From Nitrospinaceae bacterium (lineage in GTDB: Bacteria > Nitrospinota > Nitrospinia > Nitrospinales > Nitrospinaceae), in contig OZ245011.1 of assembly GCA_965223665.1 (NCBI GenBank), positions 2,176,001-2,240,000 of the forward strand: a DNA stretch of 64,000 nt, written 5' to 3'. Every line of letters starts with the position of its first letter. The stretch's first letter is position 1. The notes beneath the pieces were generated by a model. That model saw only the letters and a list, made by a program, of their open reading frames with translations. It had not been told where the DNA came from and made no database searches. Of the stretch, positions 1 through 17,227 are shown in pieces. Made by a program: the position numbers and the translations under genes.

Positions 1-1
1 C

Positions 2-2293
2 GATGCGCTCTCTTGCGATCACCGCTCCCGAAGGATCTTTCACCGGTTTTAAAGTTCGATCGCTGGAAAACTTTTCCAGGAACATCCGACCCAGGTTTTC
101 CCGTGTAATCAGAATTCCCTTCCTCTTCAATTCCCTTCGCATCGCCCCCAGGGTCGGTCCCGGCAGAGAATCAATATCTCGGACTCTCACCTTTTTGTCA
201 TCCACCCAAACATAAGCCAATGGTTTCTGTTCTTCATCTAACTCGGAATAAAATTTGCCGGGCCCTATATGGTGCAACCCCTCCAAATGCACCCGATCGT
301 TCAGTAAACTTTCCGCAAAAAATCTCTGGTCGCTTTCCGTAAACTTTGGACCCGCTTTTCTTTTGATACGGGCAAACTCTTTTTGCAAAGTATGCTTCGC
401 AGTATCAATCGATTCTTTAGGAACCAGGGAAATTAAAGGAACGGTTTCAAGGGAGTGTTCAAACATCTCATTGAAAGCATTTGGATCGACTGCGTTAATA
501 ATCTGAGTCCATTCATTATAATTTTTTTCATTCAATTGAGATTTCACCCAGTCATTCAGTTGAGATTCTGTATAGTTATACTCCGATTGAATTGCAAGAG
601 GCACAATAGTCTTCATCATATGGGCAAACCCAACCTCCTGATAATTGTCCCCAATGTCTTCCTTTTCAAGCCTCCTTGCAATTGCCTGCACCAGATTGAT
701 TTTCTTTTGATACTGCTCCTTCACTCTTTGTCGATCCGCAACATTTTGCAGCTGACCCGGATTCTAGATCAGCCGATGGTCTTCCTGCATTCCATTTAAA
801 AATTCTGAAAGGACCGGGTCAAATTTATTGTATTGATGAACACCGGAGCCGAAGTACAGGGAAAACTTATTCTGCAGATTCGGGTTATCCGACGTGGCCA
901 AATCCATCAAAGGCTTATAAGCGTTTGCCTCCTTTTGCAGTTTGAGTAACAACTCATCTCTTTTCCGGTTCGCATTGTTTTGCTCAGAAGTTCCCCCTGC
1001 CGGAACAGCTCCCTGTGTAAAATCCTCCGGGTTGATTTCCGTCGACAGTGAAACCGGTTGGCCTCGGTCCACGGCCAATTCAGCATGACCGGTAGCTTCA
1101 GGGGAAAGCGGGGGTTGTGTACCTTTCAACCGGAACTCGATAATTTCTTCCAAAGCCTCTTGGGTTTCTTTACTGACGAGAGGCCATTCCGATCGCTTTT
1201 TCAAATCGGTCAACGAGGGAACTACCGGGCTTTCGGCAGCAAATTGAAACAAGGATTCCTCATTCTCGTATTTGGCGGTATATTCTTTTAACGTGTTTGT
1301 GTATTGTTGGTGATCCCTTAACTTTTCAGTCATCTTCCGTTCTTACGGATCGTCAATATTCCGGAGAGCTTCCTGTTGTTCTTCCTCCGTCAGGGACTCC
1401 AGCGCTGCCACATTGTGCTGGGCTTTATTCATCACCACCTGCTCCCGGATTCTCGCTTCGAGTGGTTCCGTATCGTTCGTTTTAAATTCTTTTTTATGCG
1501 CGGTAAAATATTCCTGCGCTTCTTCAGGTTGTTCGGATTTCAACATACTTTCAATCACCGTCAGGTTCACCCGCTCCAACACTTTTCCCTTTTCCGCAGC
1601 GACCCGTTCATCGCTCAATCCCATCGAAACCTGCAACATTTCAATGGAGCGGTTGATGACCTCAATTTCATCTTCGATCACTTGAGAATCTAAAGGATTT
1701 TTTCGAATCGATTCCAGAGAGGTGCGCGCCGTGTTCTGGTGATTTTGAATTACAGACCGTTTCCATTGCACTTCTTCATAGTCCCGCATTCCATCCAACA
1801 ACCGGGAAATTTTCTTTTCCAGAATCGGTTGGTATTCTTCGCGCAAATACTGCGGCATCTCGGCAAAACCTTTTCGTAGAGCCTGGAAATTTTCCGAGGA
1901 CGAATCCAACTGATACGTTTCCAACAGTTCCGGATCCGGGTCTGCAAAGTCTACGGGTGTTCCATCGGAAGGCTGATCCAACAAAGTTATAAATCTTTGA
2001 AACGCGTGTGCGAACCCGAAACTCTTTTCACCTTTTAACGACGCCATGCCCTCACGCACCTCACCCGCGGCCCCGGTGAGCGCTTTCTCCATTTTCATGA
2101 TCGATTGAGTATCACGCCGCTGTCGCTGCACATCCATGAACACCGCCGCTTCGCCCAGGGTGTTGCTGAGCGCATCCAGGTTACGCACTTTCGCTCCGCC
2201 AACCAGTTCCGGAGTCACATTCAATCGCAACTCCCCGCCCCCTAACGACTGCGGCTGTATTGTCGGATTATTAAGATGAGGTATTTTTGGCAT
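2..2293 (-). pseudogene. Phage internal virion/ejection-like protein (>760 codons, runs off the left edge), interrupted by two in-frame stops
   Basis: ORFs 1343..2302 and 764..1333 and an open frame 763..2 are all in one frame. TAA at 1343-1345 reads ...NIDDP*ERKMTEK and TAG at 764-766 reads ...HRLI*NPGQLQ. The MPKIP start (ATG 2293) and helical, charged composition resemble podovirus internal virion proteins (inference from context). Confidence 0.6.
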
Positions 2294-2325
2294 TAAGGTC
2301 ACCTGAGTTGAAAGTTTTATTCATT

Positions 2326-4452
2326 TTATTTTTTACTTTGAGTATTGGGTTTACTTTTTCCTTGAGAAGATCGAAACTCGTCTAATGAAATTTTCCCAAC
2401 CGGATTACTCGGATTAAATTCAACAGCATCGATTAATTTTCCATCCTCGAGGAAATAAAATACATAATCCTCAAGTGATATCTCTACTCGCGTTCCCTGC
2501 TTTAAATTATCTAGTTCCTCGGAAAGACCAGGAAGAAAGTTATCCAATTTTTTCTTTGCAGTTCCATTTTCTCTAATATAATTTTTAAACCGATCTCCTT
2601 CTATTGAAACCGTTCCCATCTCATTTTTTTCGCCCAAATCAGAAATAAATTCTTTGAATTTTTCGGGATACTTTTCTCTCGCTTTTGAATTTCTGATTAT
2701 TAAAAGTAAGGTGATCTGAAAGTTATTAGAGTTTATCTTTTTTAATCTTTGGCTGGCCGTTTCTGACTTTGAGCCTGTTATTGAGGGAGTATTTGATGGA
2801 TTTGCAGCGTCCCGTTGTATTTTTTCTACTTGTTTTTTTAATTGGCCTTTGAGAGGAACCGTAACAGGTGCCGTGGTCACTCCTTTTTTAAAGCCTTTCT
2901 TTGCCGCTTTTATCGCACGTATCAACAAATCATTAACATTTTTTTCAGACGAGAACGAAGTTCCTCTCTTTGCCAGAGTTCCATCCTCCTCAGCTCCTAA
3001 AATGATTCCCAAATCTTCCGCCCCGGCGGTTAATAGTTCATTCACCGTAGTTTTTTCGGTTCCTTCCAGGGTTTCCATTGCAATGTTTTTGAGTAATGTA
3101 CGTGCTTTGCGTCCCTTATTAGAGGCTAAATAAGTTTTTAATTCTTCTAAGAGTACATTTTTGGTGGCCTCTCCGATGCGTTTTGAAGCCACTCCCCCGG
3201 GAATCAAATCAAACCCTGTCATGAGAAAGGCCATCCCCTCCGCCACCTCTTTCGCCACATCTCGTTTAATGCCTCCCATTATCAAATCGACTACGAGGAT
3301 GCCGCGTTGCATTTTCCAGTTATCTCTGGCACTGACCACCTTGTAAGTAATTCCCGCTGCGGTAAGACCCGCAGGTAAGGCCAATGGCCCCGTCTCCGCA
3401 GCTGCGAATGCGCCAATCGCAAATCCCGCTCCTACCTGTTGGTCTATTCGAAGCCATTGCTGTCCCCAATCAATGAACGTACTTATTCCTAAATTAGCCA
3501 GACTGTCCGGGCCTTGGTTAAAAGCAATATGATTATTGAGGTTTTCTACTTCTTTTTTTATTTTTATCAACTCTTCTTCAGAAATATCACCCTCAAAAAA
3601 TCTGTTCCCAATTTCCGATTTTTTAAAATTTAGAGACGATACCTCGTTAGCCTTTTTAGCCAAGTCCCAAAAGGCTTCCATTCCGGATAAATGTTTTAGT
3701 TCCTCCAGGGAAAGAGAGTTTGGCGGCAAGCTTTTATAAAATTCTTTAGTAAGTTGAAATAATTTCAATATGTGTGTCGTTTCTAATTCTTCATATTTTT
3801 GTTTCGCCATTTCCGGAAGGCTCAAAACTTTAGACAATTTCCACTTTGTCCTACGCTGATATTTTTCTACATTCCTGACATATTTTTCAGCGTCTTCCTC
3901 GGACAGTTGGGGTTCCCATTTTTTTACCAAGGAGCGGATTTTATCTAATCTTTCCTGATCTGACTCTTTCCTACCCTCTAACCACGGGGACAGAAACTCA
4001 AGAAGCGGATCGTTATTATTCTGTTTTTCTGAAGCACCTTCAAGGAGACCGTTCGGCTCTTCTTTTTCTCCTGATAAATTCCCTGCAGAAGCGGAACTGG
4101 AACTTTCGCTAGTCATTGCGCCCTGTCCCGCCTGGGCCAGCAGGGTGCCTGCAGAAGGATCGGGCGCAGGGTCGGTTTCGCTGCTAGATGCCGGGTTTTC
4201 CTCGGTGAAGTTTGCCGGATCTGTCAAACCCTCTTCATCCCCTCCGCCTAAGAAATTAGAGGATTGGGAATTCTCCGGGTTTACCAGCGATGCCAGTTGA
4301 TTTGGATTCTCTTCGGATTCCAGCGAAGAATCGGAGGTGTCCAATTTCGACTCACTAACTCCGGCTTTCTGAGACGATGCCTTTCCTATGACCTTCCCGG
4401 ATGATGTGGGGTTTGCAGTTTTTATAGAATCCACCATAGAGCTTATACTCAT
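2326..4452 (-). CDS. Large phage-like protein, putative internal virion/ejection protein
   Basis: 708-aa ORF directly downstream of terL. Low-complexity Ser/Glu/Pro N-terminus and a Gly/Ala hydrophobic stretch (VGAGFAIGAFAAAETGPLALPAGLTAAG), as in ejection proteins. Confidence 0.55.
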   Translation of the reverse strand: MSISSMVDSIKTANPTSSGKVIGKASSQKAGVSESKLDTSDSSLESEENPNQLASLVNPENSQSSNFLGGGDEEGLTDPANFTEENPASSSETDPAPDPSAGTLLAQAGQGAMTSESSSSASAGNLSGEKEEPNGLLEGASEKQNNNDPLLEFLSPWLEGRKESDQERLDKIRSLVKKWEPQLSEEDAEKYVRNVEKYQRRTKWKLSKVLSLPEMAKQKYEELETTHILKLFQLTKEFYKSLPPNSLSLEELKHLSGMEAFWDLAKKANEVSSLNFKKSEIGNRFFEGDISEEELIKIKKEVENLNNHIAFNQGPDSLANLGISTFIDWGQQWLRIDQQVGAGFAIGAFAAAETGPLALPAGLTAAGITYKVVSARDNWKMQRGILVVDLIMGGIKRDVAKEVAEGMAFLMTGFDLIPGGVASKRIGEATKNVLLEELKTYLASNKGRKARTLLKNIAMETLEGTEKTTVNELLTAGAEDLGIILGAEEDGTLAKRGTSFSSEKNVNDLLIRAIKAAKKGFKKGVTTAPVTVPLKGQLKKQVEKIQRDAANPSNTPSITGSKSETASQRLKKINSNNFQITLLLIIRNSKAREKYPEKFKEFISDLGEKNEMGTVSIEGDRFKNYIRENGTAKKKLDNFLPGLSEELDNLKQGTRVEISLEDYVFYFLEDGKLIDAVEFNPSNPVGKISLDEFRSSQGKSKPNTQSKK

Positions 4453-4648
4453 AGCACCTTCCCTATCGCCGGAGTTCTTCGTTGAGTGTGCATGGGCGGA
4501 AAGTCCTCGCGATAATTTGTTTTAAGGGTTCGTCATTTAGTTTTAATTTTATTTTCCATGAAGATTAAGATCTCAATTAATATGGGTAAAAAAATTGGGA
4601 ATAGCAGGTTCTTCTGTTATTACGTAATTTCTAAAAACTATTAAGGAT

Positions 4649-6139
4649 TTAACTTTGAAAAATCTTTCTATTTTTTAATGCGTTGTAGTTTCGGCGTTCG
4701 TTTTGGGAGCCGGCGGTTCCAAAGGCGGACTTTTTAAACGCTACCGGATAGGCAAAGGTGAGTGCCAACGCATCGCCACGATTCGGCGAAGCCAGCCCGC
4801 GTTCCTTCATCTGCTCTTTACTTTCCAGTTGAATTTTTCCATCGGGTCTTGGTACGGTTTCGGGTCCGATTAAATCCTGATACAACACATCATCTTTCGG
4901 AATTGCCCCGCCCTCCTGCAGCCATTTCTTAACACCGCCCCACATTTCGGCCCGCTTGTTTAAAAACCCTGCATCGTTCGCCTTCTCCCCAAACCATACC
5001 AACTGCCAGTTGCGCTGCATGGTTCTGCCGGCGCTCACTATACCTGTCCCATAACCGGCATCGACAAATACGGCATCGGCTTGAAGCTCGTCTTCCAACC
5101 GGGCAATGAGGTTGGCCACTTGAATATCGTTGTCGTTTTTGGGAATGGTCCGCAGTATTTTAAAATATAATCCCTGCCGCATGGCGATGACCAGTTCATC
5201 GTCGCCACCCCAGGCGGGATCGCAGGCAATAATCTTCGGCGCATAATTGTATTGCTCCGGTTTTAGATGCTTGCCCAGTGCCGCGTCCACCCACTCTGTT
5301 GAAATAAACTGCCTGGCCGAAACTGCGGGAAACATGCCGCGCACGCGGACTTTAACGAAATCCGAATCCTCTCCGTAATCGTCAATCCATTTTTGAATTT
5401 TGGCTTTGTTGGTGATGGCCACCTGTCGCGAGTCGATTTGATAACTTTTCCAACGGTGGCGAAAGCGTCGCCAGCATTCGCGGAAGCGCCCGGTGTTGCG
5501 AGTGGGATTTCCAAACGCGGCCCAGATCATTTCGGTATCGCTGTCGGTGAGCGCGCCTTCGGACACCTCCCAAATTGCATCGGGAATGGCCGAGCCTTCA
5601 TCAAAGATGAGAAGAATCCGTTTGCCTTTATTGTGCAAGCCGGCAAACGCCTCGCTCCGTTTCTCCGACCAGGGAATAATATCCATGCGCCAGGTCTTGG
5701 CGTGATCAGGATCCACCGAATGATAACTGGTCGCTTCCAACTGGAAGAAACTTTTGTAAGCACTGAGGCGATGCCACTTTTCCAACTCCGCCCAGGTTTT
5801 GGTCTTCAATTGATTCTCTGTATTCGCGGTGACCACGCCGCGAGTGTCCACTTTGGTGGTCATGCCCCAGTCGATGACCCACGCCACCAGTGCAGATTTC
5901 CCGACACCATGTCCCGAGGCGACAGCAATTTGGATCGCTTCACCGGGAGTGAGCAACCCGTCGCGGATTTCTTTCAGCACTTGAATTTGCCACGGTTCGG
6001 GTCCGGTGTGATCTTTCAGTTCGCCTTCACCCCACGGGTAGGCAAACAAAACGTACGCGTAAGGGTCATGTTCGAACTCGGCGATGGCATCGATGAGTTG
6101 ATCGAGCGTTTCCAGTTCCTGTTCAATCACTGCTGGCAT
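4649..6139 (-). CDS. terL: Phage terminase large subunit
   Basis: Walker A VASGHGVGKS, Walker B LLIFDE, coupling motif GNPTR, nuclease motifs ACDPAWGGDD and SPNRGDALAL. Start taken at ATG 6139 (MPAVIEQ), which overlaps the terS end. Confidence 0.93.
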   Translation of the reverse strand: MPAVIEQELETLDQLIDAIAEFEHDPYAYVLFAYPWGEGELKDHTGPEPWQIQVLKEIRDGLLTPGEAIQIAVASGHGVGKSALVAWVIDWGMTTKVDTRGVVTANTENQLKTKTWAELEKWHRLSAYKSFFQLEATSYHSVDPDHAKTWRMDIIPWSEKRSEAFAGLHNKGKRILLIFDEGSAIPDAIWEVSEGALTDSDTEMIWAAFGNPTRNTGRFRECWRRFRHRWKSYQIDSRQVAITNKAKIQKWIDDYGEDSDFVKVRVRGMFPAVSARQFISTEWVDAALGKHLKPEQYNYAPKIIACDPAWGGDDELVIAMRQGLYFKILRTIPKNDNDIQVANLIARLEDELQADAVFVDAGYGTGIVSAGRTMQRNWQLVWFGEKANDAGFLNKRAEMWGGVKKWLQEGGAIPKDDVLYQDLIGPETVPRPDGKIQLESKEQMKERGLASPNRGDALALTFAYPVAFKKSAFGTAGSQNERRNYNALKNRKIFQS

Positions 6140-6647
6140 CTTTTGCTTTCTGCAAACGTTCGGCGATGCGGTCGGCAAGGCCGTGTTTAAAATCGACTTC
6201 GTGCTTTTGCACAAACATTCCCAGGTGGTCTGCCAGAATTTTTAAGGAACGAATTTTATCGTGAAGCTTGAACTTGATGGTGCTGCCTTTGTCGTTCAAG
6301 GTGGCGTTGATTTCAGCGACAGCGGCCATTTGTTCGCGGGACAGTTTATCTTTAGCAATCATCGTCGCTTCATGCGAGTTCCAGTCTAAGTAGTCCCCAA
6401 CATTGGCAAACGCGACGTTGACCAATTCATCGAGAACGCGATCCTGTGTGATCTCCGTTCGCTGCGACAATTTGGCCTTGCCTTTTTGAATCGCTTTCTG
6501 AATTTCCGGCAATGCCATAAGCTTCCCCACGTTGGGTCCGGCAAACTTTTTGGCGTATCCGGCGCGGATGTAGGCTTGCGTGGCATTTAAATCCACCAGG
6601 TACTCTTCCACAAACCGCTCCTGCTTTAACGATAATTTTTTAGCCAC
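6123..6647 (-). CDS. terS: Phage terminase small subunit
   Basis: N-terminus LSLKQERFVEEYLVDLNATQAYIRAGY is typical of Terminase_2; KLHDK motif; immediately upstream of terL. Confidence 0.92.
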   Translation of the reverse strand: MAKKLSLKQERFVEEYLVDLNATQAYIRAGYAKKFAGPNVGKLMALPEIQKAIQKGKAKLSQRTEITQDRVLDELVNVAFANVGDYLDWNSHEATMIAKDKLSREQMAAVAEINATLNDKGSTIKFKLHDKIRSLKILADHLGMFVQKHEVDFKHGLADRIAERLQKAKDASSD

Positions 6648-6699
6648 TGCTTTAACGTGAAATTGATGTGATATAATATTTAGTTATGAGACGGATCTT
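6637..6699. repeat. Divergent promoter/junction block, copy 1 (copies at ~8707-8769 and ~10617-10679)
   Basis: TTTTTAGCCACTGCTTTAACGTGAAATTGATGTGATATAATATTTrGTTATGAGACGGATCTT occurs three times, at offsets of 2070 and 1910 bp. Confidence 0.95.
6669..6677 (+). promoter_or_regulatory. Extended -10 promoter (TGnTATAAT) 8 nt before the ATG of the first secreted paralog
   Basis: TGATATAAT at 6669-6677 and ATG at 6686, with no Shine-Dalgarno. The same geometry occurs before 8756 and 10666, and as TGATAAAAT before 7199. Confidence 0.6.
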
Positions 6700-7165
6700 G
6701 ATTTTATTGATAGTTTTCGGCTTACTTATGAGTGGGCCACAAATCGTAAACGCTGCCGACCAGAATTACATTATTGAAAACTGCGATCGCGAGTACCTTT
6801 GGACGGAAATTTTGAAGGATATTCGTTGGCGCGCACTGGAAGAAGCTAAGTTTATTGAGGAACACATTCAACCTACCCCAAACCGTCCAAAACTTACAGA
6901 AAAGGACTTCCGGGACATCGATAAATTGGACAAAAAAATCCGTTGGTACGCCTCCGAATGTATTTTGCTGATGAAAGAGATCAATGAATTTATGAGTGCT
7001 ATTCATTCTAAAAAACCCAATATGGGTTCTGAACTGGCATTTGAAGTTGATGGTACTTTAAACAAGTTCGACATCCCTTTTTTTAGACATTTTGATCGAG
7101 AAAATGATTTTAAACCTTTTTTCGAATTTAAGTATTATCTTTATAAGCCTTCCGGAAAGCTTTAA
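6686..7165 (+). CDS. Secreted/periplasmic protein, putative SLT inhibitor (immunity paralog I1, orphan)
   Basis: Sec-type signal peptide (MRRILILLIVFGLLMSGPQIVNA), conserved ENC..W and SECILLMKEIN motifs, about 82% identical by manual count to 10666..11145. Confidence 0.8.
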   Translation: MRRILILLIVFGLLMSGPQIVNAADQNYIIENCDREYLWTEILKDIRWRALEEAKFIEEHIQPTPNRPKLTEKDFRDIDKLDKKIRWYASECILLMKEINEFMSAIHSKKPNMGSELAFEVDGTLNKFDIPFFRHFDRENDFKPFFEFKYYLYKPSGKL

Positions 7166-7198
7166 GATATTCTGCTACCTGTGATAAAATGCTTTGTT

Positions 7199-7687
7199 AT
7201 GAGACAAATCTTTTCGACAATTATGTGTTTATTTTTTTTAGTTGTCCTACCTCACATTGTCCACGCCGGAGATGGAGGTTATGATATTGAGAACTGCGAT
7301 CGGGGAAAAATTTGGCCATTAATTCTATCTGACATGAAACGCCTGGACCCTAAAACCGCAAATTATATTGATCAAAATATTCAACCCTCGAAAAAACGGC
7401 CCACCTTAACGGTGGCGGACTACAAAGAAATCGATAAATTTCCGGAACCCTATCGCAAAGATATTTCTGAATGCATTCTGCTGATGAAGGAAATCAATCA
7501 ACTGATCCTGACAATCCATAAGAAAGATACCGAAATATCAATAATAACTAGTCTTGATATTGAACAGTTCCTTGGCATGCATGAAATTCCATTTATTTAT
7601 TTATGGAATTCCCAAAAAAAACTCATCACCTTCACTTTTGATTTCACAACGGTGAAAACTTTATTGCTAGGTCGCGAAAGTTACTAG
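7199..7687 (+). CDS. Secreted protein, putative immunity paralog I2 (partner of SLT 7644..8681)
   Basis: Signal peptide MRQIFSTIMCLFFLVVLPHIVHA, ENC and SECILLMKEIN motifs, 44-bp 3' overlap with the convergent SLT gene. ATG 7199 is preferred over GTG 7181, which lies in the -10 element. Confidence 0.8.
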   Translation: MRQIFSTIMCLFFLVVLPHIVHAGDGGYDIENCDRGKIWPLILSDMKRLDPKTANYIDQNIQPSKKRPTLTVADYKEIDKFPEPYRKDISECILLMKEINQLILTIHKKDTEISIITSLDIEQFLGMHEIPFIYLWNSQKKLITFTFDFTTVKTLLLGRESY

Positions 7688-8681
7688 GCACCGGTTTCCC
7701 TTGCCTCACCAAATTTAAAACATACCTGAATTGCCTTAAATACTTTCTTGTTTGAAGCGGCATTTTCTTTTCTACCTTAGCAATTATCTCTTCATCTCCT
7801 TGGTTTCCTTTTATTAGGACATTTGTACGCGCCCTATTAATTGCTTCTATTCCTGCGTTATACTCCATGGCAACAAACCCTAAATAATCATCTGTGCCCT
7901 TCCACCTTCGGGCCATGTCTTTAAAAATGAGCCATTTGGCCGCTCGGACATTAGACGCAGGATCCTTAGTGATTTGAGTTTGCGTCAAATTTAACATAGC
8001 TGATTTTGTATTTACTATATCTCCCGCCGTTTTTGGCATTATCTGCATTAATTGTCTTGCCCCTTTAGAACTTGGTTGGTTATTTTTTCCAACATCGGTT
8101 TCTAAATGCGCAATAGTGATCAATATATCTCCCACATCTTTTTCAGAAAAGTCCTTGGGAATCTCCATTCCTGATTCGCCTGCAATGACACGAATCGATT
8201 TGTAGGTATTAGGAGCATAGTTTTTTACTCCTTTTTTTATATTGTTCTTAACAGTGGATGAGCTATCAAAAACTAAATTTGGTGTGTAATATTTAGAAGG
8301 ATCATATTTCGTTGCAGTCAATTTTTTAGGACTCTGGCCTTTCGGTGCGTTGACGAGGTTTTGCTGCATAGCCCAGTCCATTTGAGCGTTACCGCTGCCG
8401 AGGGCACTGGGACTTAATGGATGCGGTTTTGTATGATCCTCGGTGTTGTACAAAATACCGGGATCAATGGTCCTCTCCGATGGTGGCAGACTTCCCTCTG
8501 TGGTTAAACCTCCATTCAATAATGTTGGTCTTCGATTTCTTCGTCTTCCTCTTTGGGTGCCAACCCGGCGGTCATCCTTTTTTCCGGAGCCATCTCCGTA
8601 AAGAATTTCTGCCATCTCTTCCCATCTTTCCCGACTCGGGAGATTGGAACTACCATATCCGCTTAAATTAATTCTTCCCAT
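7644..8681 (-). CDS. Lytic transglycosylase (SLT domain) with conserved N-terminal leader, variant T1
   Basis: Catalytic Glu in AHLET, QLMQIMP, DPASNVRA, EYNAG, QTRKYL motifs. First ~115 aa nearly identical to T2 and T3. Confidence 0.88.
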   Translation of the reverse strand: MGRINLSGYGSSNLPSRERWEEMAEILYGDGSGKKDDRRVGTQRGRRRNRRPTLLNGGLTTEGSLPPSERTIDPGILYNTEDHTKPHPLSPSALGSGNAQMDWAMQQNLVNAPKGQSPKKLTATKYDPSKYYTPNLVFDSSSTVKNNIKKGVKNYAPNTYKSIRVIAGESGMEIPKDFSEKDVGDILITIAHLETDVGKNNQPSSKGARQLMQIMPKTAGDIVNTKSAMLNLTQTQITKDPASNVRAAKWLIFKDMARRWKGTDDYLGFVAMEYNAGIEAINRARTNVLIKGNQGDEEIIAKVEKKMPLQTRKYLRQFRYVLNLVRQGKPVPSNFRDLAIKFSPL

Positions 8682-8755
8682 TTTTTATCCTTGTTCTAAA
8701 AATAACTTTTTAGCCACTGCTTTAACGTGAAATTGATGTGATATAATATTTGGTT

Positions 8756-9229
8756 ATGAGACGGATCTTAATTATATTTGTAGTTGTTGGCTTATTTATA
8801 AGTGGACCACAAATCGGAAACGCTGCCGACCAGAATTACATTATTGAAAACTGCGACCGCTCTATATTGTGGCCAGCCATATTGAAAGACTTAGAAACTC
8901 GTGATCCTTCGGCATCCGATTTTGTTAAAAACAATGTTAAAATTCCAAAAGAAAAACCCAGATTGACAGCCGATGAATTAAAGCAAATTCAATATTTTGA
9001 TCCGAAATTACATTGGCATGTTTCGGAGTGCATATTGTTGATGAAAGAAATTAATCAATTTGTTTCTGCAGTACATAAGTTTGGATATTCAAGAAGTTGG
9101 GATGTATCAATGGAAATCGAAGGCACATTAAATATTTATGATATCCCTTTTATTTCCATATGGGATAAAACCAAAAAATTTGTATTCTTTGTCAATTTTT
9201 CAAAATTAAGGCCACATAAAAACTTTTAA
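8756..9229 (+). CDS. Secreted protein, putative immunity paralog I3 (orphan)
   Basis: Signal peptide and first ~34 codons essentially identical to I5, divergent afterwards; ENC and SECILL motifs. Confidence 0.8.
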   Translation: MRRILIIFVVVGLFISGPQIGNAADQNYIIENCDRSILWPAILKDLETRDPSASDFVKNNVKIPKEKPRLTADELKQIQYFDPKLHWHVSECILLMKEINQFVSAVHKFGYSRSWDVSMEIEGTLNIYDIPFISIWDKTKKFVFFVNFSKLRPHKNF

Positions 9230-9246
9230 AAATTTTCTCAATCATA

Positions 9247-9726
9247 ATGAAAACCAAACTAACTATAATTTCGTTAATTCTTATCTGTTTCTTATTTTCT
9301 GGAACCCGGTTTGGGAATGCGGCGAATCGAAATTATCGCGTTGAAAATTGCAGCCGGGCCCAACTGTGGCCGGAAATACTGAAAGATTTGAAATGGCGTG
9401 ATCCGGAAACCGCTGAGTTCATCGATAAAAATATCAAGCCTGTCCAAGAACGCCCTCAACTGACCGATGAGGACTATCAACAAATTGAACGGTTTGATAA
9501 AAGGATTCATTATTTTCTATCCGAGTGCATGCTTTTGATTAAAGAAGTAAATGTGTTGATTAAGGAGGTCCATAAAATTGATCCCAATAAAACTTGGGCG
9601 GTTGGAGATGAAATTAGAGGAACCCTAGACAAGTATGAAATTCCTTTTGATTACAAATATACAAAAAAAGATGAATTTATTTTTTATGTCATTTTTGCGC
9701 CTTTAACGCCGGGCGAAACCTTTTAA
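9247..9726 (+). CDS. Secreted protein, putative immunity paralog I4 (partner of SLT 9689..10591)
   Basis: Signal peptide ending FGNA, ENC..W and SECMLLIKEVN motifs, 38-bp 3' overlap with T2. Confidence 0.8.
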   Translation: MKTKLTIISLILICFLFSGTRFGNAANRNYRVENCSRAQLWPEILKDLKWRDPETAEFIDKNIKPVQERPQLTDEDYQQIERFDKRIHYFLSECMLLIKEVNVLIKEVHKIDPNKTWAVGDEIRGTLDKYEIPFDYKYTKKDEFIFYVIFAPLTPGETF

Positions 9727-10591
9727 GATAATTCTGTGTTTCCTGCGGCATAAACTGTATTACCTTATCTATTTTTTGATTTGCTCCAACTCCAAACTTA
9801 TTTACCGCTTTTCTCCTTGCCTCTTTCACCGCATTTGGGCTTGAATTATACTCAATGATCGAAAATTCTAATCGGTTATCCACTCTTGGATAGCGTCTCC
9901 AAATATCACTAAACAACAACCACTTGGTTGCCCGAATGTTTGAAGCTGAGTCATTTAAAATTTGTTGTTGCGATAAATTTAATCCGCTTTGATTGGCAAT
10001 TCCCTGGGCAGTTCCCGGCATGATCTGACCCAAGCCTTTGGCTCCCATTGGACTGGTTTGACCGGGCACAAAACTGGATTCTAATTCCACGATGGTTTTA
10101 ATAATTCGAGCTGCGTCTCTATTAGTAAACCCTGTGGGAATTTTTACATCCGGTTCACTCGTTATTATTTCAATAGATTTCTTAACCTCCTTCACCGTAC
10201 TGAATTTATAATTGGTATTAAATTTTCCCTGCTGACCGGGTTGCTTGCTTTGGCCTTTCGGGGCGTTGACCAGGTTCTGTTGAATAGCCCAGTCCATTTG
10301 AGCATTGCCACTGCCGAGGGCACTGGTGGGAAGAGGTTTATCCGGGTTCTCTGTGTTGTACAAAATACTTGGATCAATCGTCCTCTCTGAGGCTGGAAGA
10401 CTTTCCTGTGCGGTTAAACCTCCATTCAATAACATTGGTCTTCGATTTCTTCGTCTTCCTCTTTGGGTGCCAAGCCGGCGGTCATCCTTTTTTCCGGAGC
10501 CATCTCCGTAAAGAATTTCTGCCATCTCTTCCCATCTTTCCCGACTCGGGAGATTGGAACTACCATATTCACTTAAATTAATTCTTCCCAT
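9689..10591 (-). CDS. Lytic transglycosylase (SLT domain) with conserved leader, variant T2
   Basis: ELESSF (catalytic Glu), SPMGAKGLGQIMPGTA, EYNS, PQETQNYL motifs. Confidence 0.9.
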   Translation of the reverse strand: MGRINLSEYGSSNLPSRERWEEMAEILYGDGSGKKDDRRLGTQRGRRRNRRPMLLNGGLTAQESLPASERTIDPSILYNTENPDKPLPTSALGSGNAQMDWAIQQNLVNAPKGQSKQPGQQGKFNTNYKFSTVKEVKKSIEIITSEPDVKIPTGFTNRDAARIIKTIVELESSFVPGQTSPMGAKGLGQIMPGTAQGIANQSGLNLSQQQILNDSASNIRATKWLLFSDIWRRYPRVDNRLEFSIIEYNSSPNAVKEARRKAVNKFGVGANQKIDKVIQFMPQETQNYLKRFRPALKAQK

Positions 10592-10665
10592 TTTCTATCC
10601 TTGTTCTAAAAATAACTTTTTAGCCACTGCTTTAACGTGAAATTGATGTGATATAATATTTGGTT

Positions 10666-11145
10666 ATGAGACGGATCTTAATTATATTTGTAGTTGTTGG
10701 CTTATTTATAAGTGGACCACAAATCGGAAACGCTGCCGACCAGAATTACATTATTGAAAACTGCGATCGCGAGTATCTTTGGGCTGAAATTTTGAAAGAC
10801 ATTCGCTGGCGCGCTCCGGAGGATGCTAAGTTTATTGAGGAACATATTCAACCTACCAAAAATCATCCAAAGCTGACAGAAAAGGACTACCGGGACATCG
10901 ATAAAATGGACAAAGCAATTCGTTGGTACGCCTCCGAATGCATTTTGCTGATGAAAGAAATCAATGAATTTTTGGGTGCTATTCATTCTAAGAACTCTGA
11001 TATTGCTATGGGTTTAACCTTTGAGATTGATGGAACCCTAAACAAATTTGATATACCGTTTTTCAGGCACTTTAATCGAGAAAATGAATTTAAACCTTTT
11101 TTTGAATTCATGTATTATCTTTATAAGCCTTCCGGAAAGCTTTGA
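10666..11145 (+). CDS. Secreted protein, putative immunity paralog I5 (partner of SLT 11108..12037)
   Basis: Signal peptide, family motifs, 38-bp 3' overlap with T3. Confidence 0.8.
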   Translation: MRRILIIFVVVGLFISGPQIGNAADQNYIIENCDREYLWAEILKDIRWRAPEDAKFIEEHIQPTKNHPKLTEKDYRDIDKMDKAIRWYASECILLMKEINEFLGAIHSKNSDIAMGLTFEIDGTLNKFDIPFFRHFNRENEFKPFFEFMYYLYKPSGKL

Positions 11146-12037
11146 GATATTCTGCCGGTGATAAATCGTTCTTATTCGGTCGTGTATTCATGGATTTCAG
11201 CTTCAAGACTTCCTTAATCTTGTTTCCTGCTCCCTGACCAAATGATTTTTCAGCTTCCTTTCTCGCTTTTTTTACATCATTCGCCCCTATTTTGTACTCC
11301 AATACCAGAAACCCGATTCGATCATCCGCCTTATCATAGCGTTTCCAGCCATCAAAAAATAAAACCTGTCCGGCAATGATATTAGCTTCATTTTTATCCA
11401 AAATATCGGTTTTGGTAAAACCCGTATTTAGATTTTGGGCAATTAAACCTGCTGTCCCATCAAGTATCTGCATCAATCCGGAAGCTGTGGAGTTTGGATT
11501 TTTTACTTTTGGCCTAAAACTGGATTCAATTTGAATTAACGATTTTGTGATTCGACTCACCTCTTGAACAGGAACCGGATAACCAAATTTCTTATGGGTT
11601 TTAACGGTAATTAAATCCACCAAATGTTTGACCTCTTTCACCGTACCAAATTTATAATTGGTATTAAATTTTCCTTGCTGACCGGGTTGCTTGCTTTGGC
11701 CTTTCGGTGCGTTGACGATTGCCTGCTGCATAGCCCAGTCCATTTGCGGGTTACCGCTGCCGAGGGCGCTGGGGGGAAGAGGTTTATCCGGGTTCTCTGT
11801 GTTGTACAAAATACTTGGATCAATCGTCCTCTCTGAGGCTGGAAGACTTTCCTGTGCGGTTAAACCTCCATTCAATAATGTTGGTCTCCGATTTCTTCGT
11901 CTTCCTTTTTTAGTGCCAACCCGGCGGTCATCCTTTTTTCCGGAGTCATCTCCGTAAAGAATTTCTGCCATCTCTTCCCATCTTTCCCGACTCGGTGGAT
12001 TGGAACTACCATATTCACTTAAATTAATTCTTCCCAT
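11108..12037 (-). CDS. Lytic transglycosylase (SLT domain) with conserved leader, variant T3
   Basis: QIESSFRP (catalytic Glu), STASGLMQI, ANIIAG, EYKIG motifs; RBS AAGGATAG upstream. Confidence 0.9.
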   Translation of the reverse strand: MGRINLSEYGSSNPPSRERWEEMAEILYGDDSGKKDDRRVGTKKGRRRNRRPTLLNGGLTAQESLPASERTIDPSILYNTENPDKPLPPSALGSGNPQMDWAMQQAIVNAPKGQSKQPGQQGKFNTNYKFGTVKEVKHLVDLITVKTHKKFGYPVPVQEVSRITKSLIQIESSFRPKVKNPNSTASGLMQILDGTAGLIAQNLNTGFTKTDILDKNEANIIAGQVLFFDGWKRYDKADDRIGFLVLEYKIGANDVKKARKEAEKSFGQGAGNKIKEVLKLKSMNTRPNKNDLSPAEYLKAFRKAYKDNT

Positions 12038-12280
12038 TTTCTATCCTTTAATTAATTCCCGGAATGTGAATCACCCCAGCCCGGCCCCCGGCCGGCAGGA
12101 ACATTCTTTTGCGATGATTTAATTTCAATGCTATATCTTCACAAAGTTTTCGAGGATTATAGTTGCCCCCAATCGCTAGATTGGAAAAGGGGAGCGCATT
12201 GGCTTCCCATTTTTATATTTGCTTCTAAAAGTAAAATTTGAGAACAGTTTCTGTCGATTCAATGTTCGCCACCGATCAGC

Positions 12281-12397
12281 GCAAATGAAAGTTGCCGCCA
12301 CGGCGAGTGAGTGCCCCCAATCGCTAGATTGGAAAAGAGGGAGCACATCGGCTTCCATAGAAACTCAACGCAAATGAAAGTTGCCGCCACGGCGAGT
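12281..12397. repeat. Short direct repeat within a cluster of dispersed palindromic elements
   Basis: GCAAATGAAAGTTGCCGCCACGGCGAGT at 12281 and 12370; CCCCCAATCGCTAGATTGGAAAAG at ~12166 and ~12314. Confidence 0.85.
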
Positions 12398-12657
12398 GGT
12401 GAATCACCCTGACCCTCTTTAGGAAAGAGGGAGCACATCGTTTTCCCCTGCGTCATATTCTCCAAAAGACAAAATCTGAGTTTGAAAATTTTCTGAAGAT
12501 TCCCTTCTATATATAGAACAAACTCACTTCCCTTTCTTAGATCACTGATCGGTATTCCGCCAGTTCAGGAAGCGGGCCCAAAGGCGGCGCAGCCAGCGTT
12601 TCAGTTTTTGCCAAAATCCGGGAGGGTCTTCTTGGGGTTTTCTATTTTGCCAGGGCA

Positions 12658-14775
12658 TCAGTTCATTCCATTTTCAAAGAGGAGTAATAAGTCTATGTCT
12701 GTATTCCAGAACGGTCCCGGTACGGTCGGGCCGCTTAAAACCATCACTGCGTTCGGCGTCACCACCAGCGGAACGTTGCCCACCAATACAAAGCTGGATT
12801 GGCCGGCGCTGTAATCCATTGGTGAATTGGCACTCAAAACCGCGGCCACGTCTCCATCCACCCAGGGATGTTTGTTTTGCTCCAAAACTGAACTGACCGC
12901 CAAAGCCAACGTGATATCTCCCGCAATTTCCGGGTGACGGTTCATTAACATTCCGGCCTGAGGTGTCAATTCCAGATCCACATTGCCGGCAATCGAATAC
13001 GCGCCGAACGCACTCATTCCGGATTGTGGGGTGAGGGTGACGGAAACGGTTCCGTCGATGGAGGGATGGATTTGAACGTCCATCACCGATGCGGCCTCAA
13101 ACTGGCTGGTCACGTTGCCATCAATCGAAGGATGAATATTAAAATCGAAAATTCCTTCGGCAGACAGGGTTAAGGGAATATTGCCGCTCAACGACGGATG
13201 AATGTTTTTCACAAATGTGGACAGCGGTGTGATGTCCAACGGAACCGATCCGGTCAAATTCAAATGTTGATTGTATTGCTCGATTCCATCCGGGGAGAGA
13301 GTGACCATTACATTGCCGACGACGGAAAAATCAAAATGCGCGGTCATGATCGCCGCGGGTGTAACGTCGGCAGTGACGTTGCCGGTAATGGAGTAACTTG
13401 CCGCAGGAGTGCCGACGGTAATGGATGGAGTTTGCGTGATCGTATTTAAAATTTGGAAAGACTCTTGTCGGGCTAGACGGAACTCAATGACATCAGTATC
13501 CACTGTGTCTGCATCGACGATCTTAATGACAAACTCAACTTCGGTTTCGTCATTGCCGGCAAAGGTGATTTTCTTACCCTGCCAATCGTTCTCCATCACG
13601 TATCCGGTGGCAAACGTGCCCGAACCTAAACGCTGAGTACTGTTTTCGAGATCCGTGATATTCGAACTCAATACGAGTTGGGCAACCGAAGAAGCATTGG
13701 TCACGCCACCCCAGGAACCTGAATTTAATCGTCGTTGCAATGAAAGCGCATCGACAGCACCATTAGCCGTTGCACACTTCACCAGGAAGCGCAACCGAAC
13801 TGTGGTTTCCGCTTGGAGAGTAATGTCTGTGTTCAATGCGGCTTTAAATGTAGCTGCCGACTCCGAGCCGTCGTCATTAATAAAACGAAATGAATGTTGA
13901 TCCAATACTGGTTCGTCAACGGTTATGCGTGGGGTTTGGGTGTAGGCATCGAGGGCAGTGGACCCGTCGTAAACACGAAAATCGATGGTGTCTAAATCCG
14001 CGACTTCCTGAGGTCGAATCCAAAAACAGAATTCCACTTCGGTGTGTTCGCTAGCGGCTAAAGTAATCGCGGCGGCTTGTCCGTCAGATTCGTCAAACTC
14101 ACCGGCTTTAAACGTTCCGGTTCCTCCAAGTTGGTCGGTGGTTGCAGTGCCATTCGAAATATTAGGTGAACCAATAGACCGAGCAATCGAGGAAGCACCG
14201 TCAACGCGAGTGTAAGTTCCACTGGAGTGACTGCGATACAAAGTAGGCGTGAACGTAATTCCGGAACCGCCCGTTTCCTGAACGACAAACCGTAAGCGCA
14301 CCGGGACATCTGTCGAATGGTTGATGCTGGTATTTTCTGTTGCCAGCCAGGTTGCGGTGGTTTCGCTTCCATCGGTATCTCTAAATCGGAACCCGGTCTG
14401 ATCCAGTGTAGCGGATACAGCGTTGACCGTAATAGTTTGGCTGGAACTGTTGGTGGCGGCACCGCCGTTGTTGTTATCGATAACGCGGATGCGAACCGCA
14501 TAAGTCCCGGCGGTGTTGCAGGTAATGGTCTGGGTGTGCTCCAGCTCATCCCCTAAATTGGAGAGCGTGTTGGTGGGCGTGGTGAGTGCCGCGCCACTGG
14601 AGGGAATGTTCACCCAGGTGCTGGTGCCCTGGTCCCACTGCCAGATCATGTTGTAATCCCCACCGCCGTGATTGGACAGAGTGACCTGCCCTCCCATGGT
14701 AAACGTTTGGCCTTCGTTTAGATTCGGGTCGCTAGTGGGTTGAGTTAAGCTGACACTGGTTACGGTTTTAGCCAT
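12658..14775 (-). CDS. Large beta-rich phage fibre/structural-like protein with internal repeats
   Basis: Thr/Ser/Gly-rich. Two ~165-aa homologous domains (LDQTGFRFRDTDGSETTAT / LDQHSFRFINDDGSESAAT) and about ten ~22-aa C-terminal repeats of the form SIxGNVxLxLTP. Confidence 0.6.
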   Translation of the reverse strand: MAKTVTSVSLTQPTSDPNLNEGQTFTMGGQVTLSNHGGGDYNMIWQWDQGTSTWVNIPSSGAALTTPTNTLSNLGDELEHTQTITCNTAGTYAVRIRVIDNNNGGAATNSSSQTITVNAVSATLDQTGFRFRDTDGSETTATWLATENTSINHSTDVPVRLRFVVQETGGSGITFTPTLYRSHSSGTYTRVDGASSIARSIGSPNISNGTATTDQLGGTGTFKAGEFDESDGQAAAITLAASEHTEVEFCFWIRPQEVADLDTIDFRVYDGSTALDAYTQTPRITVDEPVLDQHSFRFINDDGSESAATFKAALNTDITLQAETTVRLRFLVKCATANGAVDALSLQRRLNSGSWGGVTNASSVAQLVLSSNITDLENSTQRLGSGTFATGYVMENDWQGKKITFAGNDETEVEFVIKIVDADTVDTDVIEFRLARQESFQILNTITQTPSITVGTPAASYSITGNVTADVTPAAIMTAHFDFSVVGNVMVTLSPDGIEQYNQHLNLTGSVPLDITPLSTFVKNIHPSLSGNIPLTLSAEGIFDFNIHPSIDGNVTSQFEAASVMDVQIHPSIDGTVSVTLTPQSGMSAFGAYSIAGNVDLELTPQAGMLMNRHPEIAGDITLALAVSSVLEQNKHPWVDGDVAAVLSANSPMDYSAGQSSFVLVGNVPLVVTPNAVMVLSGPTVPGPFWNTDIDLLLLFENGMN

Positions 14776-15175
14776 GGTCCTCCACTTTTACAACTTTGAG
14801 ATAACAACGTTTTTCGCCCTGGGCGTATAAGTCATTGAGAGTGTCAATGTCCAGTTGCCGACGCGGCCAGACAACACAGGAAATGGGCTTGCAGGACCGC
14901 CCGCCCTTCTCCTGTTGGCCGCACTTGAGTGTGTCTTGATTCAAATGCTCGCAGGAAGTGCCCACCGGCCCGATCAACGGCATAGCCTGACAACATAACG
15001 CCTGACATTTTTCGGTGGGGCACCGCACCTGACCGTTTTCATCTTCCACATACCCCTGCACTTCGTACTGCTGGCCGTCTTTATCGACAAACTTCATTTG
15101 GTCCCAGTTTTCGGTACGCAGTACGACGTACGAGTATTGTGCGGAACTCTCTGTCTCCGTTGGGGGGATTGACAT
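14768..15175 (-). CDS. Cys-cluster (YkgJ/CxxCxxCC-like) metal-binding protein
   Basis: CPTEKCQALCC...CEHL...KC...KPISCVVWP pattern. Confidence 0.6.
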   Translation of the reverse strand: MSIPPTETESSAQYSYVVLRTENWDQMKFVDKDGQQYEVQGYVEDENGQVRCPTEKCQALCCQAMPLIGPVGTSCEHLNQDTLKCGQQEKGGRSCKPISCVVWPRRQLDIDTLNDLYAQGEKRCYLKVVKVEDHG

Positions 15176-15195
15176 ATAAGATTCGCCGAGTGTTC

Positions 15196-15507
15196 TCAGG
15201 AAAATTTATGAAGTTTAGCTCGGCGATCATCCGCCGCAACAGCGGTGTTATCCAAAGCCAAAGTCAATTGGTGCATCGCCAGCGCGGTGTTAATAGCATC
15301 TTGGGTTTTCGTTACCTGCTCCGAGGTTGCTGTGCCGCCATCGGTGAACAGTTGATCGGCCAATTCCTGATCGGACAAGGTTCCCTTGACTTCCTGCAGG
15401 TCTTTGTATTCCTCTTCAGCCTGAGCAAGGGTCACTAAAATCTGCTTACTGTGCTGTTCTAACCTGCGAACCACATCCGGCCATTTCATTTCACTTGAGT
15501 AAGGCAT
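15196..15507 (-). CDS. Hypothetical protein (phage structural operon)
   Basis: 103-aa helical ORF with RBS, co-oriented within the operon. Confidence 0.7.
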   Translation of the reverse strand: MPYSSEMKWPDVVRRLEQHSKQILVTLAQAEEEYKDLQEVKGTLSDQELADQLFTDGGTATSEQVTKTQDAINTALAMHQLTLALDNTAVAADDRRAKLHKFS

Positions 15508-15525
15508 AATTTATTTTGACTCCTG

Positions 15526-15954
15526 TTATTCCGCAGAGATTTGCGGGGTGATGTCGTAAGTATCGCCATCGTTTAAGGTATATGGTCCGTTACCGTCTAC
15601 TTCAATCGCAAGGATTCGCGCCGTTCCTGTGCCTGCGGGCTTCGTTGCAATGAAATATCCATATATACTTCCGGAGTAATTGCCGCCCGATGGTGAAAAC
15701 TGCTGAACGGCGTAGGTCATGGGATTGGCCGAGGTCCAACTACCATCAGTAAGCGTCTTGCGTGCATAGCCCCCGCCGGTAGGTTCTGTGATGGTAGCTT
15801 CCGTGATGGTGTCCCCAGGAGCAGAATTTGTAAACAGACCCAATTCCAGATCGGCTCCTCTATCGGTGTTAGTGTTAAACGTTGAAACGTTTTCGGCGGA
15901 CAAGGCTAAATCTAAAAAAACCTGTTCCCCTTCATTGGGCACAAATCCGGGCAT
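15526..15954 (-). CDS. Phage fibre-associated structural protein
   Basis: LGLFT...EPTGGGYARKTL...W...YGYFI...LNDGD pattern seen in small phage fibre-associated proteins; strong AGGAGG RBS. Confidence 0.65.
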   Translation of the reverse strand: MPGFVPNEGEQVFLDLALSAENVSTFNTNTDRGADLELGLFTNSAPGDTITEATITEPTGGGYARKTLTDGSWTSANPMTYAVQQFSPSGGNYSGSIYGYFIATKPAGTGTARILAIEVDGNGPYTLNDGDTYDITPQISAE

Positions 15955-15965
15955 ATCTTTACCTC

Positions 15966-16259
15966 CTATTCGTTAACCGCAACCGCGTGCGGGATTAAAT
16001 GTTCTCGTGGTATTTCTCGATATTCTCGCGGGTCCGGTCCCTCGAATTCGGGATGGGTGACCAAATCGTTAGTGAAAATCACTTCGTAACCTTTGCGCGC
16101 CATGATGCGTTGAAAGCTGGCGGGGTCATCGTTCTCTCCCACTCGCCCTCTAAAGTTGAACTGTCCGGATGGCTCGCCCTGACCGGGCATAAACTGGTGC
16201 TGTCCTTCCGCCTCGCTCTCGTTTTCTTTTTTCTTTGAAGTTTCCAAATAGCAAAACAT
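15966..16259 (-). CDS. Hypothetical protein
   Basis: 97-aa ORF abutting both neighbours in the operon. Confidence 0.6.
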   Translation of the reverse strand: MFCYLETSKKKENESEAEGQHQFMPGQGEPSGQFNFRGRVGENDDPASFQRIMARKGYEVIFTNDLVTHPEFEGPDPREYREIPREHLIPHAVAVNE

Positions 16260-16658
16260 TTATCTCACTCCTGCGGTTAAAGTTATGTTGGTATTAGATC
16301 CTGCGAGCCGGGCCGCCTCTATTCGTATGGCATCGAATCCACTAGGGTATAACAGAAACCAGCCGCGGGTCCCCGACGGCAAAGTCGTCAGGTCGCTACT
16401 GGCGCCGATCAGGACGCCTTCCGGCGTGGTGTAATCGGTCGGAGTGGAATACAACACGCTCCAGGCGCCGCTTTTTTGGGCTCGTGCCGAAATGACAAAT
16501 TGATCAAGATCGGTGGTGTCGGAAAGGATTTGCACAAAGAGGGCATAACGGTAGAGGATCCGTATATCCTTGATGACAGTTAGAGATTCGTCTTCCAACA
16601 CCACCGATGCGGAGACGTATTCTATCGGCTGCGATTTATATCCGTCGTGATTCGACAT
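16260..16658 (-). CDS. Hypothetical protein, beta-rich, possible virion component
   Basis: 132-aa ORF with upstream GAGGAG; operon context. Confidence 0.65.
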   Translation of the reverse strand: MSNHDGYKSQPIEYVSASVVLEDESLTVIKDIRILYRYALFVQILSDTTDLDQFVISARAQKSGAWSVLYSTPTDYTTPEGVLIGASSDLTTLPSGTRGWFLLYPSGFDAIRIEAARLAGSNTNITLTAGVR

Positions 16659-16694
16659 TCTATATGTTGACTCCTCGCTTGAAGATCGCGGTTA

Positions 16695-17024
16695 TCATTG
16701 ACAGCATGGACCGTGAACATCCATAGCCAGTTGGTTTTCTAATCCGGAAACGTATTGGGTGTGTTTGATGAAATCGGCCTTGTTCAAGCAGGACAGCATT
16801 TCCTGATCGACCACCCCGCTGTTTAAGTATTGCCATTCGATGAAGGGTCGTTGAAACCTTCGAGGCTTTGAAGATACCTGGCTCCACGTGAACCGATCCG
16901 GGTGCCGGGAAGTTTCCACTTGCGAAGTGGCCAGGCGCTGTTGGCACGCATAACTTTCGATGGCATAGTAAACGGCAAAACAAATGCTGTAGACAATCAC
17001 TGCCATTAAAAGGAAACGTTTCAT
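16695..17024 (-). CDS. Hypothetical secreted/membrane-anchored protein
   Basis: N-terminal hydrophobic helix; ATGA overlap with the upstream ORF. Confidence 0.55.
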   Translation of the reverse strand: MKRFLLMAVIVYSICFAVYYAIESYACQQRLATSQVETSRHPDRFTWSQVSSKPRRFQRPFIEWQYLNSGVVDQEMLSCLNKADFIKHTQYVSGLENQLAMDVHGPCCQ

Positions 17025-17227
17025 GATCGCGGCACCCCGACCTTATTGACGGGTTTGTCCTTAGGGTTGGAATGAGGTGAGTTTTTCAGTAAATTCCGTT
17101 CCTTTAAGTCGCTTTTCCCTGAGGTCCTTCCATAAGACTGGCGGCTGCCGAGCCAGGCCGCATAAAGCAACAAAACCGTGATGGAAATTATCACTACGAC
17201 TAAAGCTTCGACCATTCCTGCCTCCAC
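17021..17227 (-). CDS. Small single-TM protein
   Basis: Hydrophobic N-terminus; coupled to neighbours. Confidence 0.5.
   Translation of the reverse strand: MEAGMVEALVVVIISITVLLLYAAWLGSRQSYGRTSGKSDLKERNLLKNSPHSNPKDKPVNKVGVPRS

Follow-up and report, generated by a model that had tools for sequence, protein, structure and literature searches.

A relic of a probably deleted lytic transglycosylase gene at the 3′ end of an orphan I gene in a Nitrospinaceae phage-derived element

The I/T array and its products

The DNA analysed here, hereafter the window, is a 64,000-nucleotide stretch of the chromosome of a Nitrospinaceae bacterium (GenBank assembly GCA_965223665.1, contig OZ245011.1, positions 2,176,001 to 2,240,000; positions on the contig itself are given below with the prefix G000 C1). 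Between a terminase small-subunit gene and a tail-fibre-like gene it carries an array of small I genes on the plus strand and larger T genes on the minus strand. Most of these genes face each other tail to tail with overlapping 3′ ends, and the features of the array, with emphasis on the stretch around I1, are as follows (window coordinates).

6647-6123, minus: terS, the terminase small-subunit gene, left border of the I/T array
6637..6685, plus: conserved block upstream of I1, near-identical to the blocks preceding I3 and I5
6667-6677, plus: extended −10 element of I1, TGTGATATAAT, 8 nt before the ATG; putative promoter
6686..7165, plus: I1, intact orphan I-family gene, 159 aa
7128..7175, minus: relic, the last 15 codons and the stop of a T3-type SLT gene
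7128-7165: portion of the relic that doubles as I1 coding sequence
7166..7175, minus: the only 10 nt of the relic specific to T, situated past the I1 stop and identical to T3 (codons A-E-Y and one further nt)
7176..7179: probable deletion junction, TACC, a gap between the end of homology to the I/T3 unit and the start of homology to the I2 unit
7180..7198, plus: minimal upstream element of I2, retained; putative function
7180-7190, plus: extended −10-like element of I2, TGTGATAAAAT, followed by 8 nt to the ATG
7199..7687, plus: I2, convergent with T1, 44-bp overlap
7644..8681, minus: T1, SLT-domain enzyme, 345 aa
8756..9229, plus: I3, second orphan I gene
9247..9726, plus: I4, convergent with T2, 38-bp overlap
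9689..10591, minus: T2, SLT-domain enzyme, 300 aa
10666..11145, plus: I5, paired paralogue of I1, convergent with T3, 38-bp overlap
11108..12037, minus: T3, intact SLT-domain enzyme, 309 aa, the tail of which matches the relic
14775-12658, minus: tail-fibre-like gene, right border of the I/T array

The I genes in the window that stand without a partner are thus I1 and I3, and the spacing between I1 and I2 is now 33 nt.

As judged from their sequences, the T proteins are SLT lytic transglycosylases. T1, T2 and T3 match the Pfam family SLT (PF01464) with 34.8, 44.6 and 47.8 bits, respectively, against a curated cut-off of 21.3, and the alignment of the T profile with MltC and Slt70 covers their catalytic domains, E-S motif included. 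All 10 T sequences compared have E171, which falls on the IESS motif of MltC in the alignment and is presumably the catalytic glutamate of the E-S motif. The first ~125 residues are 79–91% identical among T1–T3 and the SLT parts 25–40%; no signal peptide was recognised by eye in T. An AlphaFold2 model of T3 was poor (mean pLDDT 45.8).

The I proteins, of about 159 aa, share a basic and hydrophobic N-terminus ending in VNA/AD (A-x-A-like) and two invariant cysteines, and with this signal-peptide-like N-terminus they would be exported to the periplasm. The model of I1 is of good quality (mean pLDDT 82, above 90 over most of the mature part, below 55 for residues 1–25) and predicts a helical bundle with a C-terminal hairpin, in which the variable segment of the protein (residues 108–122) lies at the turn between the two longest helices. 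Known families offered no counterpart. Pfam gave no match for the five I proteins at E up to 0.1, except a sub-threshold row of I4 with Rab11-FIP3 (E 0.066, 13.9 bits against a cut-off of 31.9 bits), and PHROGs gave none for I1, I2 and I4 at E up to 0.001. With the I1 model, Foldseek returned nothing at E ≤ 0.001 and VIA-align a best Z of 5.7, which is within the noise for helical proteins; a sequence profile search of the PDB with I reached a best E of 0.5, and an ESM Atlas search a best score of 0.75, below its noise level. A complex prediction for the mature domain of I5 with the SLT domain of T3 scored 0.00, which speaks neither for nor against binding. From gene linkage, the odds are about even that I proteins act as exported, allele-specific inhibitors that block the SLT domain of the matching T.

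Upstream of I genes, an extended −10 motif (TGTGATATAAT; TGTGATAAAAT for I2) stands 8 nt before the ATG without a Shine-Dalgarno sequence, at 6667-6685, 8737-8755, 10647-10665 and 7180-7198, a geometry that is that of leaderless transcripts. The same motif, at the same distance from the ATG, precedes Ib, an I gene just outside the window. A scan for sigma-70-like promoters found no excess (13 found, 14.4 expected), and our statements on promoters are based on the conserved extended −10 motif by itself.

The array also bears marks of recombination. The first codons of terS belong to a repeat of ~29 nt with further copies upstream of T1 and T2 (6619-6648, 8690-8718 and 10600-10628); this repeat is a likely substrate for unequal crossing-over that would expand and contract the array. 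I4 adjoins I3 after 17 nt, and its signal-peptide region has no DNA match in the relative described below. The gap between T3 and the fibre gene (12060-12440) is full of short dispersed host repeats, with 76 blastn hits in the genome and very high depth in metagenome contigs. Alternative joints within the array (6000-12700) occur in metagenome contigs of three public short-read runs (X2–X4): a contig of X4 joins 8691 to 12399 with 40 other letters between, and contigs of X2–X4 join 10679 back to 7280. The sides of these joints are short (28–37 nt), and they offer weak evidence, suggestive of strains with differing numbers of cassettes.

The relic at the 3′ end of I1

On the minus strand, 7175-7128 reads AEYLKAFRKAYKDNT followed by a stop, i.e., the last 15 residues of T3 and its stop, as a sequence-only reading of the window had pointed out. 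The DNA of 7128-7175 is identical to that of 11108-11155 at 45 of 48 nt, and the three mismatches are all silent in the T frame (ACT/ACA, stop TAA/TGA and CTT/CTC). The overlap register agrees as well: the relic, with its stop at 7128-7130, reaches 38 bp into I1, just as T3 reaches 38 bp into I5, which ends at 11145. The relic frame comprises 22 open codons (stop at 7199-7197) and has no start, and therefore this is a relic and no present gene.

Of the 48 nt, 38 are the C-terminal codons of I1 itself read on the other strand, which leaves ~10 nt as independent evidence, and the identity over 15 residues overstates that evidence because it follows largely from the 82% identity between I1 and I5. 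The same reading had claimed that similarity continues about 10 nt beyond the I1 stop. Formal alignments of the I1 and I5 regions, and of four I1-type units of the genome, bear this out: instead of ending at the stop codon, identity with T3 runs on for exactly 10 nt (7166-7175, GATATTCTGC) and breaks at 7176-7179, while identity with the T gene of the relative reaches 11 nt. At a fixed register and with this base composition, a 10/10 match has a chance probability of ~1e-6. A match of 10–11 nt is too short to date the lost gene or to show its length directly, and since so little is independent of I1 coding, it is the comparative data that decide the interpretation.

The junction between I1 and I2 is not an assembly artefact, because short-read contigs of three of the four public runs (X1, X3 and X4, with none among the matches listed for X2), which are possibly derived from the source sample, cross 7134/7136-8464/8468 without differences.

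I1 itself is intact and under purifying selection. Its 159 codons are without lesion, and its dN/dS is 0.10–0.19 against I5, Ib, M16a and M16b. The earlier figure of 82% identity between I1 and I5 holds, and so does the remark that their differences are clustered, as 11 of the ~33 non-synonymous differences fall in the 15 codons 108–122 (KKPNMGSELAFEV versus KNSDIAMGLTFEI). With a dS of 0.57 between them, I1 is no recent copy of I5.

Comparison with the sister species and probable origin of the scar

The sole other genome found to carry the I family is a metagenome-assembled genome of a same-genus relative, in which one array (L017) is syntenic with that of the window and has the order terS, I, truncated T, I, T3-type gene, I2-like, T1-like, I3-like, T, fibre. 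Window and L017 correspond as far as 7176 (L017 6491) and once more from 7180 (L017 7428) onward, so that L017 6492-7427, 936 bp, is absent from the window. What is missing is the body of the T3-type gene together with its 5′ region and the stretch preceding the I2 −10 element, and TGTGATAAAAT follows immediately on the right edge of the junction.

An I1-like allele beside an intact T gene exists in another array of the relative (L016). This allele (L016 6001-6480) is 86% identical to I1 and has the variable loop NMGSELAFEV, also found in I1; its partner (L016 6443-7372) is an intact T3-type gene of 309 aa that ends in AEYIKAFRKAYKDNT. The gene at the syntenic position of the relative is another I sub-allele, 77% identical and with a different loop. 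The I1-like allele itself sits in L016 and not in the syntenic L017, and the ancestral state at the I1 position is therefore reconstructed, not observed. Going by the variable loop, the lost enzyme was probably of the sub-type that is paired with the I1-like allele of the relative, and not T3 of the window itself.

The other orphan in the window, I3, has an allele in the relative (91% DNA identity) with its own, non-overlapping SLT gene of 346 aa (L017 9876-10916). As this T gene does not overlap I3, the homology of the window ends at the I3 stop.

Within the same genome as the window, the T genes form a decay series that runs from the intact pair I5/T3 through a T pseudogene (at Ib) and a relic of 35–48 nt (at Ia) to the 10-nt relic at I1. 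Opposite Ib (G000 C1 2170803-2171288, just outside the window) lies a T3-type pseudogene, disrupted near codon 140 by an insertion of 1 nt and at codon 278 by a TAA. Behind the orphan Ia (2170252-2170731) come a decayed T tail of ~35–48 nt and, after it, the −10 element of Ib, and M16a of the relative is the same kind of orphan in the same place; in both, the decayed tails (35–48 nt) stop at an I-type −10 element. I genes decay too, as seen in a 45-codon I fragment with a stop at 2172262-2172396. At Ib, the loop of one sub-type stands beside the pseudogene of another, and the correlation of loop to enzyme is thus imperfect.

The proposal that I1 once had its own enzyme, which was deleted while I1 was kept, is supported by the array of the relative, by the L016 pair and by the decay series. 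We put the probability at roughly 0.8 that 7128-7175 originated in a deletion of ~0.94 kb that left the I genes on either side and the minimal promoter of I2 in place. I1 would once have stood tail to tail with a T3-type lytic transglycosylase gene, their 3′ ends overlapping by 38 bp. The deletion would then have taken the T gene save its last 15 codons, of which 38 nt survive because they are also the last codons of I1, and 10 nt of the T tail would have been kept as a spacer at the left end. On the right, it would have ended just upstream of the extended −10 element of I2, and I1 would have stayed intact and constrained after the loss of T. An orphan I of this kind may protect the cell from the matching type of enzyme when it arrives on a related phage or phage-like particle, which would explain why I genes are kept while T genes are lost. 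As to how the deletion arose, GTGATA occurs both in the T tail and in the I −10 element and might have served in a microhomology-mediated event, but the junction seen, TACC, differs from the product that this predicts.

It is conceivable that I1 never had an enzyme at this position, and that an I-only segment (I and 10 nt of flank) from an I/T3 unit was inserted ahead of I2 by illegitimate or repeat-mediated recombination. The array is recombinogenic, with the 29-nt repeat of the terS 5′ end upstream of each unit, signal-peptide regions that have been swapped among I genes, and the alternative joints in metagenome contigs. However, one clean 936-bp loss explains the syntenic order of the relative, I1 is too diverged from I5 for a recent copy, and two other orphans have the same type of junction with longer T tails, all of which leaves insertion quite improbable. 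Gene conversion of I 3′ ends, in which a recent conversion would have made the tail of I1 uniform with I5/T3, the tract running 10 nt beyond the stop, might account for the last 12 codons of I1-type genes being far more conserved (dS 0–0.37) than the whole genes (0.5–0.7), but such conservation of the tail is expected anyway from dual coding, and conversion needs homology on both sides, of which there is none beyond 7176; we regard it as very improbable. Chance resemblance or an assembly artefact has a practically negligible probability in view of the ~1e-6 computed above and of the contigs that bridge the junction.

The phage-derived element and the possible role of the I/T cassettes

The I family is narrowly distributed. 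A word-based search of 5.8 billion proteins returned 13 I proteins, from the contig of the window itself, two contigs of the relative and one 10-kb contig, and an exhaustive profile search of 1.84 billion cluster representatives returned six. The family occurs in 2 of 21 genomes of the bacterial family, all in one of its five genera, and relatives were found in none of 128 candidate stretches of IMG/VR viral contigs and none of 187 of JGI metagenome contigs. The N-terminal domain of T is equally restricted (11 proteins).

By its gene content, the context of the array is a T7-like phage-derived element. It extends over about G000 C1 2154600-2193600 (window 1-17600), host-like TPR genes beginning at 17871, and includes a T7-type portal (PF12236), a capsid (PF20911), a gp14-like protein, gp15/gp16-like giants, terS and terL; no replication or integrase genes were seen inside it. 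In the sister species the element occupies the corresponding chromosomal site, and between the two genomes the portal, capsid, scaffold, terminase and fibre genes show strong purifying selection, with a dN/dS of 0.002–0.09, while the gp15/gp16-like proteins are 33–71% identical. Instead of a plain prophage, the element may represent a domesticated particle. Across the left edge of the window (window 1-2302 and G000 C1 2175009-2176000), three consecutive ORFs of 319, 189 and 571 aa are collinear with residues 1–321, 326–522 and 539–1105 of an intact 1105-aa gp16-like protein elsewhere in the element, and the gp16-like gene here is either split or broken; its last piece (571 aa) overlaps an I gene by 38 bp. 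On the minus strand of 16695-17227, two small ORFs (109 and 68 aa) with hydrophobic N-terminal segments are candidates for lysis or membrane genes of the element.

An hmmsearch over every ORF of 80 aa or more from the genome of the window and from six loci of the relative identified 27 I-family ORFs. In 18 of them a convergent ORF overlaps by exactly 38 bp and in two by 44 bp. Of the rest, two pair with a T that does not overlap them, one is opposite a pseudogene, three are without a partner (I1, I3 and Ia), and one row is a spurious antisense ORF that represents the M16a orphan. The partners include 300-aa T proteins and gp16-like proteins of ~1100 aa, and with both kinds the I-family ORF is tail to tail with an SLT-type C-terminus; residues 919–1084 of the gp16-like protein, i.e., its C-terminal part, align with the SLT domain of T3. 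The 38-bp overlap is kept even among I proteins that are 31–45% identical and with enzymes from 300 to 1100 aa (G000, L016-L021), and this conserved antisense dual coding suggests a regulatory or structural constraint. Across 10 pairs, divergence of the mature I protein is strongly correlated with that of the T SLT domain (Mantel r 0.94, p 1e-4) and not with that of the T N-terminal domain (r 0.03). As I divergence tracks the SLT domain and not the N-terminus of T, the SLT domain and I form the inherited module, similar to effector-immunity systems, a covariation that physical linkage and adjacency alone can explain.

T7 provides the nearest frame for the element, which has a T7-type portal and capsid, a gp14-like protein and a ~1100-aa gp16-like protein with an SLT-like domain. 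The gp16 of T7 is an internal virion protein with a lytic transglycosylase domain, which is N-terminal in T7, in contrast to the C-terminal SLT-like domain (919–1084) of the gp16-like protein here, and we know of no T7 counterpart to the separate 300-aa T proteins. Ivy and MliC/PliC are small, exported periplasmic inhibitors of lysozyme or lytic transglycosylase. The I proteins resemble them as small, putatively exported inhibitors of a peptidoglycan-cleaving enzyme, but all five leave the Pfam models of Ivy, MliC and PliC unmatched at E up to 0.1, and their predicted helical bundle with a C-terminal hairpin has no clear neighbour in the PDB.

A phage-encoded case is Spackle of T4, described (PMC7677548) as a periplasmic inhibitor of the gp5 virion lysozyme that acts in superinfection exclusion. 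Spackle and gp5 serve as a working model for I, in the sense of a small periplasmic phage protein that would block the cell-wall enzyme of an incoming particle. No Spackle chain appeared among the Foldseek, VIA-align (best Z 5.7) or HMM matches of I. The I system differs from the Spackle/gp5 system in that the target fold would be SLT and not T4 lysozyme, and in being polymorphic, multi-copy and accompanied by orphans, with binding by I putative.

For the orphans, the closest precedent is found in the type VI secretion loci of Vibrio cholerae, where, according to PMC5361080, orphan immunity genes outlive displaced effectors. As in those orphan arrays, immunity-type genes here outlive their partners and build up in arrays, their homologues elsewhere still have a partner, remnants of the effector 3′ end may persist, and the N-terminal part of the enzyme is conserved while its variable C-terminal part travels with the partner gene. 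The I/T genes differ from the Vibrio loci in lying in a T7-like phage-derived element and not in a classical secretion-system toxin locus, in being convergent with a 38-bp overlap and not co-directional, and in that I1 would have lost its partner by a clean internal deletion and not by displacement through an incoming module; toxicity and protection are here putative. The labels 'inhibitor' and 'immunity' are drawn from gene linkage.

A different view of function takes the T proteins as endolysins of the element and the I proteins as tuning lysis or as unrelated secreted 'moron' genes, in which case the relic would be real and the label 'orphan immunity' wrong. The T genes do occupy the interval from the tail fibre to terS, the position of the holin in T7, T proteins have PHROG matches to endolysin families, and the small membrane-protein ORFs at 16695-17227 are possible lysis genes. 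Nevertheless, gp16-like internal virion proteins, which are not endolysins, also have I genes at their SLT end, the three diverged T copies have a common N-terminal domain and one matching I each, and I genes are retained after T loss, so that we consider this view unlikely. It is possible, though somewhat doubtful, that the T/I cassettes represent a polymorphic arms race on a T7-like phage or domesticated particle. T would then be a particle-borne, ejected enzyme with a packaging domain and I a periplasmic, allele-specific inhibitor of a new fold expressed from leaderless-type promoters, with hosts stacking orphan I genes to widen exclusion, the element stacking T variants to evade them, and the conserved 38-bp overlap coupling their expression states.

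Among the matches listed by full-text literature searches, a polymorphic SLT/inhibitor array in a prophage was undescribed in the titles and abstract starts, and no title or abstract mentioned both Nitrospina and prophage, nor was there anything on this element. To our knowledge, little phage biology has been published for this environmentally important lineage of nitrite oxidisers. The scar itself is ordinary for orphan-immunity-type systems, and it is the surrounding I/T system that lacks a description among the matches listed.

The scar is a small, well-documented case in which a partner gene has outlived its enzyme. Beyond that, it draws attention to a larger system: a genus-restricted family of putatively secreted I proteins that a conserved 38-bp antisense overlap strictly couples to SLT domains of phage enzymes, arranged in recombining arrays that include orphans, pseudogenes and relics. 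If the I proteins are indeed specific inhibitors, this system would be a polymorphic counterpart of Spackle and gp5 of T4 and would provide a new inhibitor fold for lytic transglycosylases.
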